A DNA stretch of 64,000 bases from Eledone cirrhosa (taxonomy: Eukaryota), in the NCBI GenBank assembly GCA_964016885.1, contig OZ024748.1:57784001-57848000 (forward strand), written 5' to 3'. Both the position numbers and the translations under genes were made by a program. Shown in pieces: positions 235 to 56,500 of this stretch. Under the pieces are notes generated by a model. It saw only the letters and a program-made list of their open reading frames with translations. It did not search any database and was not told the origin of the DNA. Position 1 is the first letter of the stretch, and every line of letters begins with the position of its first letter.

Positions 235-433
235 TAGGAACGAGTAGGACCCCGACGGCTGAGCTCTAGCCGTTTCGACGGATACTTCTGGACTAATCCA
301 GAATTAGCCGTCGAAACGGCTTGAACTCAGCCGTCGGGGTCCTACTCGTTCCTATTACCCAGTCTACTACCTTAGTATTGAGTACTTTGGTGCGTTATGG
401 TCCATCTGGTTCCTTACCACATTTCCTTTGTTA
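235..433 (+). mobile_element. Family A fold-back element (~60 bp arms plus ~80 bp tail) in (TA)n
   Basis: taggaacgagtaggaccccgacggctgag...gtttcgacgg / gccgtcgaaacggc...ggggtcctactcgttccta; homologues at 35702, 38379, 49668, 52131 and 56306. Confidence 0.85.
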
Positions 434-459
434 TATATATATATATATATATATATGTA

Positions 460-1038
460 TATATAAGTATGTGTACGTACATACATATATGTATACAGAC
501 GTACAGTAGTATGTATATATATATATATACATACATGCACACACACATATATATATATATATATATATATATATATATATATATATATATATATATATAT
601 ATATATATATATATATGTACGTATGAATTGCCTGATCATTTATTATAATGATCGGTGTGTTTGTAAAGAAACATCGCGAATTAAGCCGTACAGTGTCTAG
701 CAGCCATCGTTGCTCATTTGTTCAACACTGACAAAGGAACGCTGTACTAGTTTCAAGCTTATTAGCTGTCGTTAGCAACGTATACCTTCCTGCCTGATGA
801 TTGAACGTCTGAAAGTATATACTTTCCTTATGCATATTAACGGATGAGCAGCCTAATTTGCATATCGAGTGAGTTAATCGGCCGGGGTACCGAAAACGAT
901 GAATCCATACGTACATATATATATGTGTGCATGTATGTACGTCTGTATACATATATGTATGTACGTATAAATACTTAATATTTAAGTAACAGCCGTACTA
1001 AGAGTGAGAAATGAAATTTCGTTTCATTTTTTCCGTTT
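460..1038 (-). mobile_element. Family C retrozyme-like element with inverted terminal segment
   Basis: 460-899 is the reverse complement of the 12.5-12.9 kb copy; 900-1038 is the same family's tail on the + strand. Confidence 0.75.
741..779 (-). ncRNA. Minimal hammerhead ribozyme, mutated core (CUAACGA)
   Basis: Minus strand: gttg CTAACGA cagctaataagctt GAAA ctag TA cagc; homologous to the intact motif at 12641. Confidence 0.65.
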
Positions 1039-2178
1039 ATATATATATATATATATATATATATATATATATATATATATATATATATATATGACCAAAG
1101 ATTAGTATGGTTCGCTGCTTACCCAACGAATACAATAGATTAGAAGCACTCAACGATGGTTTTGTATATATAGACACAATTCATCACACATATATACACA
1201 CACAATCCATCATATATATATAGAGAGAGAGACACAATACATCACACATATATACACACACAATTCATCACATATATACACGCGTACAATTCATCACACA
1301 CGCGCACACATATATACATATTTATTTTCACAATTTATCACTCATATACACGCAATTCGTCACACGCACATACACACACACACACATACACACACATATA
1401 TATATATATACACACATATATAGACACAATTCATCACATATATATATACACACACAATTTATCACACATATATACACGCACAATTCATCACATATATATA
1501 TATATACATATGCAATTCTTCTAACACATATTTTTAGTTGATATTTAGGTAATACAACAACAACAAAAACTACTACTACTACTACTACTACTACTACTAC
1601 TACTACTACTACTACTGCTACTACTACTGCTACTATTATTACTATTACTATTCTACTACTCTTCTTCCTAAAAACTATTCTTCTTTCATACTATTGAGAG
1701 AGAGAGAGAAGAGGCAGAGAGATATGAGAGAGAGCAAGTGTGAGGAGAATGAGAGAGAGAGAGAGAGAGAGAGAGAGAGAGAGTGTGTGTGTGAAGGAAG
1801 GGGGGCTACATATAATGTTGTATACAGAGAATACAATGACAAAATCTATTAATGAAATTAACTTTAAGATGATGTCTATGTTTAGACATATTTTGGTGAG
1901 AGTTCAATCTATAAACTAAAGTATATTCACCAGGGTTTTGGATCCCCGTTGGTTCACACGACTGGCGTTTAAGTATTTCGATATTTGGAACAGTCTCTTC
2001 ATGAAGTTACCGTGCACGCAACTGAACATTTCACAGACACGTGTACCCTAAACGGGTTTCTTAAGCAAATTCAGCTTGGCCATGTCTGACAAAACTGGCT
2101 CTTTGAATTACAGACACAACACATTTTGTACCACTTGAGAACACTTCCTTTCTTTATTTTCCCCGTAACTTTGGAGAG

Positions 2179-2284
2179 AATCGTAGGGTAACCATATAAG
2201 ACGTTTAGTCGCCATATAATCGTAGGGTCGCCATATAAGACGTTTAGTCGCCATATAATCGTAGGGTCGCCATATAAGACGTTT
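2179..2284. repeat. 39-bp minisatellite, ~2.7 copies
   Basis: aatcgtagggtcgccatataagacgtttagtcgccatat repeated. Confidence 0.85.
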
Positions 2285-53949: not shown

Positions 53950-54853
53950 TGACTGTAAAGCGGGGAAAACAACAGCCCATTCTAGCAACATTGTCATCAA
54001 TGGCCTAACTGTTTCACCGATATTTGATGAGGAATGCTACAGATACCTGGGGATAGATGAGAACATATCCTATAATGGTGACTGTTATAAGGAGCGCGTA
54101 ACCAGGGAATACTACACCAGATTGAGAAAGATTTGGTCATCGGAACTCTCTGCGCAAAACAAAACAGTGGCTCACAATGTGTTGGCTGTCCCTGTCCTAA
54201 CACCAAAGTTTGGAATACTCAATTGGACGATAGACGAAATCCGAGCAGTTGATGTTAGAACTCGAAAAATGTTAAACAACCCCGGAAACTTCCACATCAA
54301 CAAGGACATAGACCGCCTTTACTTGAAACGTAAGCAGGGAGGCAGAGGCCTAACATCGGTCCAGACAGCATTTGAATATCGCATCATATCTCTCGAGCAA
54401 GTCTATCTGCATGAAACAGATAAGATCATGAGAGTTGGGGAGGAACTCCGCGAGAGATATTCCCTGTGTGATAATCAAAACTTCACACCCAGGGAAGTCG
54501 CTCAGCAGTATCGCAGTGAATCCATGGATGGAAAACTGCATGCTTATCAGCTAAAAGTCATCCATGGATATGTTGGAAGCTCCAGAGTGAGAGTAATATA
54601 GATAAGGAAAGTAGTCTATCTTGGATCCAAAAACCGCTATATTTGCTCCCACTTTGAAGGATACGCTTTTGCAATCCAAGAACAGGAAATTAACACAAAA
54701 TACCTGATTCACAAAAGAGATAGGGATGCAGGCAAAACACCTAGATGTGACAACAAGTGCAGATTCTGCAGAATTAACATCGAAGACGTCACCCATGTCA
54801 TCAGCAGCTGTCCAAAGATGTCATCACGGTACTATTTACCTATGAGGCATGAT
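53950..54853 (+). pseudogene. R4/Dong-like LINE fragment (RT C-terminus plus CCHC knuckle)
   Basis: YRYLGID, RLRKIWSSELS..NK, DIDRLYLKRKQGGRGL, AIQEQEINTK, CRFCRINIEDVTHVISSC..MRHD. Confidence 0.85.
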
Positions 54854-56127
54854 ATATATATATATATATATATATATATATATATATATTACTATGCTGG
54901 AGTTTTTTCAGAATAAACGAAGAGATGAATAGTTTCTTTCATACTATTTCAAAGTATTTGAAAACATTCAAAATCACTTTGAGTAATTTGTGGAGAACCA
55001 TTGAGAAATTCTGAAAAAAATATTGAAAGCTGGTAATTAGTAAATATTCTAATCACTCGCCTGAACAACATTTATCAAAGAATCAGGCAAAATAAGAAAA
55101 AAATATACATAGAAGCCAAGGAAAAAATATACATTTAAAATAGAAGCCAATTTTTCTTTTTGGAGATTCTTTACATCCAGAAGTATTCCAAACAAATATC
55201 ACATCAATTCTCGTGAGTCGGGGATAACGAGTGGGTAGTAATAGTAGCATGAATATTGGTTCGGCTATATTAATAATGGGGCTATTCATTTCAGGTTTTG
55301 ATGACGAAAGAAATGATTGAAACTTGATACATGACAATGCTACCAACATCTTTTACCGATGAAATTGCTCGTTAATTTGCTGATATATATTTTATCTATT
55401 TTTGTTTTCTATATTTGAAAAATAAAATCATCGTCTAAATTTGAAAAGAAATACGAAGAAAAGATGGTATGTGGAGATTGAGAAAGTTAAGATTGAAAGA
55501 TAGTGAGTAACGCTTTCTAAAGATGAAAGATATGAAATGAAACGTGAAGTAAATTTAATATTTCAATAGAACAATACATGCTTCAATACTGTGGAGGATT
55601 ATTGGGAAAAGAGAAAAATATACAAATCGGTATAAGAATTACCATAAATAATGGTGTTCACAGTGAATGATAATGATTTCTAACATCAGGTTATTATAAA
55701 TAATAAAATTCAATTTGATATATTTGTTACAAGCAACACATACATTTAGACGATAACTAAGGGATAGATAGAGTAAGCCGGCTTTGTATTCTTGCATTAA
55801 TATTTTAACAATAGTAACGGGAATATAATTAGATTTAAAATTTCAGTTCAAATTTCGTATGTGTTTTAATCAATCAGATTCGTCGTTCATCTATCGGATA
55901 TATATTTAATTCTAGTTCCTGAGGTTGTACGTGTATATTTCTACGTGTAAACCCACGCACATTTACGCAATACTATACTTACACTACGCACGCCCACACG
56001 AATGCAACACACACACACACACACGCAATGTATATATATATATATATATATATATATATATATATATATATATATATTCGTATGTAGTTGATGGCTGAGA
56101 GAAAAGAGTCCCCAGTTGAGTTTAAAT

Positions 56128-56291
56128 ATTTATTTCATTAAGGCTAAATAGTGAGTCATGTTACTCTAAAGTTTCGCCTGTTTATCGCAACCTCATCAGA
56201 CAAGACCTATGTTATTTTCTGATGACCCTGTGATGAGCAGACGAAGCTCCAGAGCTACAAGACTCACTATTTAGAATTAATAAAATGAATA
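56128..56291. mobile_element. Family I inverted-repeat element with HHR motifs in both arms
   Basis: Minus strand: cttgt CTGATGA ggttgcgataaacaggc GAAA ctttagag TA acatg; + arm is diverged; tail fragment at 43831-43870. Confidence 0.7.
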
Positions 56292-56305
56292 TATATATAT
56301 ATATA

Positions 56306-56500
56306 TAGGAAAAAGTATGACCCCGACAGCAGAGCTCAAGCCGTTTCGACGGCTATTTCAGTCCAGAAATAGCCGTCGAAACGGCTTGAGCTCTGCCGTC
56401 AGGGTCATACTTTTTCCAATTACCCACTCTACTACCCTAAGTATTGAGTACTCAGGTGATTTATGGTCCATCTGGTTCCTTACCACAACTCCTTCGTTAT
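56306..56500 (+). mobile_element. Family A fold-back element
   Basis: Same architecture. Confidence 0.85.

Follow-up and report, generated by a model that had tools for sequence, protein, structure and literature searches.

The window, a stretch of 64,000 nucleotides from the genome of Eledone cirrhosa, contains several short palindromes with one layout, each repeating part of a hammerhead ribozyme motif in two opposed arms while the half with the CUGA core is absent. This raises the question of how such palindromes arise, what sets the position of their centres, and why one half of the ribozyme is lost. A preliminary description of the locus had proposed that, during integration, a single cDNA primes its own copying by folding at stem II of the hammerhead. 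Here, the palindromes of the window are compared with their relatives across the genome and with the element from which they derive.

Palindromic insertions in the window

The five copies with the previously described order of arm, centre, arm and tail are present at 235, 35702, 38379, 49669 and 56306, and a (TA)n tract surrounds each of them as well as a related copy at 52131. Arm positions are given relative to start site 1, where GTTCCTA has its last A (-1), and the tail reaches +79, which is start site 2.

235-433, plus strand: short head-to-head insertion of the 235-type subfamily, in (TA)n
235-296: antisense tail-less arm of the 235 copy, from start site 1 to about -62
294-354: sense arm of the 235 copy, from about -58, followed by the 79-nt tail to 433 (start site 2)
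35702-35892, minus strand: short head-to-head insertion of the youngest subfamily, arms ending at about -54 and -56
38379-38576, plus strand: short head-to-head insertion with 77% identity to the 235 copy, its subfamily being a diverged one
49669-49866, minus strand: short head-to-head insertion of the older GAAAT-type subfamily
56306-56499, plus strand: short head-to-head insertion of the older GAAAT-type subfamily, left arm ending at -54, right arm starting exactly at A-60
52131-52504, minus strand: solo 5'-truncated copy of about 372 nt, tail-less, ending at start site 1
52146-52240, minus strand: type I hammerhead motif of the 52131 copy, with stem I (CCCC/GGGG), stem II with a 32-nt loop, and stem III
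52235-52229, minus strand: core CUGAGAA, with C3 mismatched opposite A8
52187-52192, minus strand: TTAGTC at the 3' end of loop II, the A at 52190 being position -60
52172-52168, minus strand: GAAAC
between 52150 and 52149, minus strand: predicted hammerhead cut

The copy at 52131 does hold the complete hammerhead layout, CUGAGAA included, that had been reported for it. It had also been taken for the unfolded precursor state, and is instead a solo, 5'-truncated and tail-less long arm with no inverted partner. Nor are the palindrome centres a folded stem II, as had been thought: the 5' strand of stem II and most of loop II are missing, and what the left arm repeats, as reverse complement, is the 3' strand of stem II in the right arm together with the final loop II letters. 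Variants of the arms that had been regarded as specific to single copies are in fact subfamily letters, a 30-mer of the 235 type having 6,949 exact matches in the genome and one of the 35.8-kb type 5,082. About 13 insertions of the family lie in the 264 kb around the window, and a pattern for the short palindrome has at least 18,947 exact matches genome-wide (3.0 Gb), with none for the reversed control.

Two further motifs occur in the window. A degenerate palindrome (74%) at 56123-56295, with CUGAUGA...GAAA near 56199 on the minus strand, adjoins the 56306 copy and probably belongs to a third Penelope-like element (PLE) family, and a minimal hammerhead-like motif at 34956-34975 (plus strand) has no inverted partner nearby.

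The parent element and its hammerhead

Copies that share the extension of the 52131 copy continue upstream into a long UTR and then into a GIY-YIG coding region. A protein search revealed many open frames of about 784 amino acids, in 3.5-kb tandem units and inverted pairs, and each 3.5-kb unit holds a hammerhead and tail just upstream of its ORF. The palindrome arms correspond to this hammerhead and tail region of tandem units with an intact 784-aa ORF, and the 35702 copy has the subfamily letters of the intact-ORF arrays. The earlier suggestion of a hammerhead-bearing retroelement behind the palindromes holds.

The 784-aa frame is a single ORF with a reverse transcriptase (YRDD at 415) and, at its C terminus, a GIY-YIG domain (VIY at 658, YIG at 673). 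It further contains RWR at 104, a conservative change from RWK, DKT at 184, a CxCx5C linker (CNCPDRSIC, 639), CxxC (CNLC, 737) and CxH (CKH, 765), while no CCHH was seen in the protein by eye. This set matches the motifs given for the Hydra clade of PLEs in the accessible text of PMC8557442, which likewise treats an inverted truncated copy, a one-sided tail and a (TA)n bias as typical of PLEs. All three of these features are present here, as in Hydra-clade PLEs, and the palindrome layout itself is thus already published. The likeness of the protein to Hydra-1_Obim was judged by eye; no Pfam family was matched by the protein or its halves, and some members of its Atlas neighbours (0.97-0.99) have HTH_animal, GIY-YIG or RVT_1. 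The palindromes are almost certainly the 3' ends of Hydra-clade PLE insertions. The parent element is active, with an intact 784-aa ORF; the tandem arrays at L143-L144 and L148-L149 hold four or more near-identical units with open ORFs, and activity must therefore be very recent. Two ORFs beside L054 were rejected as part of a neighbouring element outside the palindrome family. In the window, a frameshifted remnant of a related Hydra-like ORF lies at 26768-28232 (minus strand), with 35-52% identity to the family protein in four pieces.

The 52131 motif takes the hammerhead fold only with its core held open (-26.2 vs -27.9 kcal/mol); for a unit of the youngest subfamily, the unconstrained fold is a type I hammerhead with a U3-A8 core, three stems and a predicted cut after NUH. 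Most 235-type long copies, that at 52131 included, carry C3/A8, which is unpaired, and U3-A8 is a natural active covariant according to the available text of PMC3088659. A scan with Rfam returned no hammerhead among the matches listed (150 of 165), only microRNA-like matches to TA repeats. Among exact core strings of the 235-type subfamily, C3/A8 was counted 38 times and U3-A8 eight times, and the youngest subfamily has U3-A8 together with a better-paired stem II base (cores compared at the 3' ends of L094, L099 and L210 vs L082, L090 and L193).

Separate origin of each palindrome

In the best 30 matches to the 235 copy, the arms are near-identical and the centres differ. A sample of 110 palindromes not chosen by centre contained 98 distinct centres, and the 110 junctions fall into inserts of at least 4 nt (39 palindromes), inserts of 1-3 nt (18), blunt joints (21) and microhomology (32). 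Where inserts reach at least 6 nt, 17 of 32 are locally templated and four are A/T runs; locally templated inserts also occur in polymerase-theta end joining.

The grouping of arms was assessed by distances and by haplotypes in 141 palindromes, of which 126 were ungapped and 115 assignable on both arms. Both arms belong to the same subfamily in 115 of 115 loci (shuffled mean 51), and arms cluster by locus, as the preliminary description had anticipated, those of one locus differing at 1.0 sites per 42 nt and those of different loci at 3.2. Variants in 118 loci affect one arm in 122 cases and both arms in 11. Arms that are alike within a locus and a predominance of one-arm variants therefore indicate that the palindrome is made at insertion and is not homogenised later. 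Of the earlier proposal that palindromes were regenerated repeatedly or homogenised, the first part stands and the second does not. The expectation that centres map non-randomly onto the hammerhead fold is likewise borne out in part, as their clusters lie where loop II ends on its 3' side and, for a minor class, at the predicted cut, rather than in stem II.

The possibility that one ancestral palindrome was amplified as a MITE, or that long palindromes collapsed after insertion, would agree with the fixed outer ends, and 4 of 92 centres, located at -33 to -39 in the self-complementary stem III, may indeed be collapses. It conflicts with the diversity of the centres, the grouping of arms by both locus and subfamily, and the presence of non-templated inserts at base-exact positions, which rule it out for the bulk of the copies and make it the merest outside chance overall. 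The family does not belong to the class of MITEs, with one master and no RNA step, since centres vary per copy and the parent is a reverse transcriptase element. It is not placed with the non-LTR retrozymes either: its short copies lack the CUGA half and its tandem units carry an ORF.

One tail and two coupled arms

Exactly one tail is found in 137 of 141 palindromes. In the 106 palindromes compared, the arm with the tail is the longer in 48, the shorter in 40 and equal in 18; with a length gap of at least 5 nt, the tail-less arm is longer in 21 and shorter in 23. Arm lengths are coupled: short tail arms have a short partner in 66 cases, a long one in 2 and none in 8, and long tail arms have a long partner in 10 of the 11 cases where one was found, with none seen in 5 more. 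One tail per copy and coupled arm lengths point to a single event that used both start sites on one RNA, and a palindrome very probably consists of two cDNAs of the same molecule.

These observations bear directly on the proposal of a single self-priming cDNA, for which the location of the centres, no more than about 10 nt from the 3' strand of stem II, and the subfamily letters common to both arms would speak. A snap-back at stem II is expected to preserve loop II in full, flanked by the two strands of stem II, and to lose the core, and a single folding cDNA should always leave the tail arm the longer. However, none of the 88 arms that hold the stem II 5' strand is a snap-back product, and either arm can be the longer. 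In DNA folds, no back-pairing of the 3' end is seen for a cDNA that stops at -95 or -97, tail-less arms of several kb are joined to short tail arms, and in a second family (family B, see below) the centres lie outside stem II. The absence of snap-backs and the free order of arm lengths refute fold-back in its literal form, and hardly any credence is left for the idea as a whole.

The major stop at -60

Most arms stop 53-64 nt upstream of start site 1, at the 3' end of loop II; in tail arms sampled by an anchor, the short share is 76 of 92 in the 235 type and 28 of 30 in the youngest subfamily. Stops increase in number from -53 on, are most frequent at -59 to -63 and are gone at -65/-66. Out of 131 arms that reach -60, in a set that includes palindrome-sampled loci and under-counts long arms, 92 stop at -60 to -64 and none of the 39 others stops at -65/-66. 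Of 38 short arms that reach -60 in the youngest subfamily, 29 are without the template T at -61, in a set that includes loci selected for non-T at this position. Runs of up to 22 T precede A-60, as expected of A-tailed cDNA ends. Such runs were seen in 75 of 122 arms of the 235 type and 9 of 38 of the youngest subfamily under differing sampling, hinting at a change in terminal A addition.

Letters that do not match the template are also found at this stop. By hand count, 45 of the first 100 among 10,152 non-template matches have an additional G just before A-60, and one base further in it occurs in 15 of the first 100 of 6,902 matches; the G excess at -61 has a p of 6e-6 (0.015 when G is set against C alone). 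Among solo arms that adjoin TA, G makes up 10 of the 20 non-T letters (hand count, 44 loci). In junction inserts not selected on the centre the excess is weak (6/16 vs 12/77, p 0.076), and C occurs as often as G. In those subfamilies that were seen, the long arms retain the initiator-like TTAGTC/TCAGTC, and TT-A-GTC at -60 resembles the initiator TCAKTY; no matching downstream promoter element was apparent by eye. An internal promoter with an initiator is reported for Penelope of D. virilis (PMC2377424, available text), and in L1 insertions the cap is marked by an added G (PMC11702581, accessible part). Judged from the sequences, the palindrome centre probably marks an RNA 5' end, and this end at -60 might be a capped start, a proposal that we hold at slightly less than an even chance.

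Arms that bear the ORF behave differently. The upstream -60 was read through in 37 of 38 internal units and one stopped, at -46; the internal units of one array are not independent. Full-length copies had been predicted to stop at the upstream -60, which did not hold. Read-through of internal units implies that transcripts from -60 are not the usual template of long copies, and it rules out naked-RNA structure as a block at -60.

Two other accounts of the stop also assume two cDNAs or a true RNA end. The cDNAs could have stalled at -60 on a continuous RNA, blocked by an element protein bound to the hammerhead of the unit in which copying starts. Unbound upstream units would then be read through, some 80-90% of arms would stop in the starting unit, as they do, and arm coupling would follow if the block acts per complex. 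The single-base stop in the youngest subfamily, the extra G and A-tails typical of run-off ends, and a second class, whose centres coincide exactly with the predicted cut and so show that a genuine RNA end can be marked by a centre, argue against such a block, and we consider it improbable. Alternatively, within the 5'-end reading itself, the end at -60 may stem from RNA processing, by a nuclease cut in loop II or by 5'-to-3' trimming to a protected complex. Processing is compatible with the sharp wall, the coupling and the internal read-through without any promoter, and with C being as common as G at -61 in the unselected inserts; the overall G excess at this position and the retained initiator-like letters fit it less well, and it appears rather unlikely, if less so than a protein block.

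A minor class at the predicted cut

Provided that the centres reflect RNA ends and the ribozyme is functional, some palindromes should be centred on the hammerhead cut. Such palindromes were predicted before the search, and the prediction held. A micro-palindrome pattern search for centres on the predicted cut returned 310 loci, and in 28 of the 50 listed both arms end at the cut (G-19), 19 of them with a non-templated insert (hand count) and 9 as blunt CCCC/GGGG, which could derive from CG microhomology. In the remainder, one arm ends at G-19 and the other is shorter (9 loci), the site is crossed (12) or the case is ambiguous (1). The non-crossing loci that were fetched have one tail in 20 of 20 and TA-rich flanks. 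By raw counts of unlike patterns, this class amounts to about 2% of the major one. An extra C on the cDNA was seen here too, at about six arms ending at the uncapped -19 site. For the youngest subfamily the counts are 28 of 35 cut-site palindromes against 7 of 11 crossing ones (p 0.42), and no significant link between core pairing and the cut-site class was found once controlled. Going by these letters, the hammerhead is quite likely to cleave in vivo.

Proposed mechanism

The best overall explanation, which we regard as probable, is that the palindromes are separate PLE insertions in which two run-off cDNAs were joined head to head. Two reverse transcriptases would act on one RNA, with both cut ends of a (TA)n target as the likely primers, one cDNA starting at site 1 (-1) and the other at site 2 (+79, yielding the tail). 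Both would likely run off the 5' end of the RNA, and host end joining would fuse their free ends head to head. The template of the major class would be an RNA starting at A-60 in loop II, putatively from a capped transcription start, and that of the minor class the 3' product of hammerhead self-cleavage, starting at G-19. Long arms and tandem arrays would call for a putative multimeric or circular RNA template. The CUGA half of the ribozyme would accordingly be lost because it is absent from the template, not because a cDNA folded. In the accessible sections of the in vitro study, a PLE protein cuts and extends both strands and uses two adjacent start sites that bound the tail (PMC11167929), and ligated circles have been proposed as the template for tandem copies (PMC4209133, available text).

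A broader picture can be drawn only tentatively, and we think it more doubtful than probable: the genome may be a base-resolution fossil record of a loop II promoter, of a ribozyme that cuts in the germline and whose 3' product is copied, of ligated unit circles that lead to long and tandem copies, and of a protein dimer that copies one RNA twice. If a dimer copies one RNA twice from two start sites, every centre would report the 5' end of its template.

Relation to known systems

Hydra-1_Obim (Craig et al., 2021; PMC8557442) shares with the present family the C-terminal GIY-YIG, RWK-like, DKT, CxCx5C, CxxC and CxH motifs, the (TA)n target and a hammerhead. The part of that paper available offers no account of what fixes the inversion point and gives Hydra-1_Obim the canonical CUGAAGA core and an 8-nt loop II; the family described here differs in its 3.5-kb unit, 79-nt tail, loop II of 30-32 nt and U3-A8 or C3/A8 core. 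Poseidon of Anolis (PAc; Frangieh et al., 2024; PMC11167929) is similar in its adjacent internal start sites that bound the tail, extension of both strands, AT-rich target and predicted dimer. In contrast, cleavage is unnecessary for PAc in vitro and, as far as the accessible text goes, no RNA-seq reads end at its cut and inverted insertions are not discussed, whereas insertions here end at the predicted cut. The PLE hammerheads of Cervera and de la Peña (2014; PMC4209133, available part) are of type I and lie in the pLTR, as here; unlike them, stem III of the present motif is predicted to be long enough for a monomer fold.

Non-LTR retrozymes are tandem, whereas the short copies here are head to head and contain no whole ribozyme. 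Twin priming and 5' inversions of L1 likewise join two cDNAs from two target ends internally. The L1 cDNAs derive from separate regions of the RNA; here, both would copy the same stretch from fixed start sites, which gives a palindrome. The extra G at capped 5' ends of L1 (PMC11702581, accessible part) has its counterpart at -61.

In the literature searched, outside of which most subscription papers lie, we found none that reads palindrome centres as RNA ends and none that reports insertions ending at a PLE hammerhead cut. The kind of element and its layout are known, and the 5'-end reading of the centres was not found in print. The origin of inverted one-tailed PLE insertions and the role of the hammerhead are stated as open questions in the available text of PMC8557442. 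Tens of thousands of copies provide exact testable positions for putative RNA 5' ends, at -60 and -19. If these are confirmed, cut-site palindromes would be evidence of in vivo cleavage by a PLE hammerhead and of copying of the cut RNA, which was not seen in the one in vitro study, as far as its accessible text goes (PMC11167929), and palindrome centres would allow the template ends of any PLE family to be located using only DNA.

Family B and other elements of the window

Family B, a hammerhead-bearing head-to-head insertion with one tail at 25277-25712, has a characteristic 29-mer with 4,147 exact matches. Among 92 of its arms, short ends scatter between -32 and -106, none falls within -107 to -170, and many arms retain the whole hammerhead. 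A cut-site peak is absent, as only 1 of 50 listed micro-palindromes is centred on the predicted cut. The one-tail layout is thus general; the exact wall and the cut-site class were seen, in these counts, for the first family and not for family B. Elsewhere in the window, a unit of about 376 nt forms two tandem copies, 93% alike, between (CATA)n tracts at 53113-53850, and a near-perfect hairpin of 45 bp lies in AT-rich sequence at 56696-56792.
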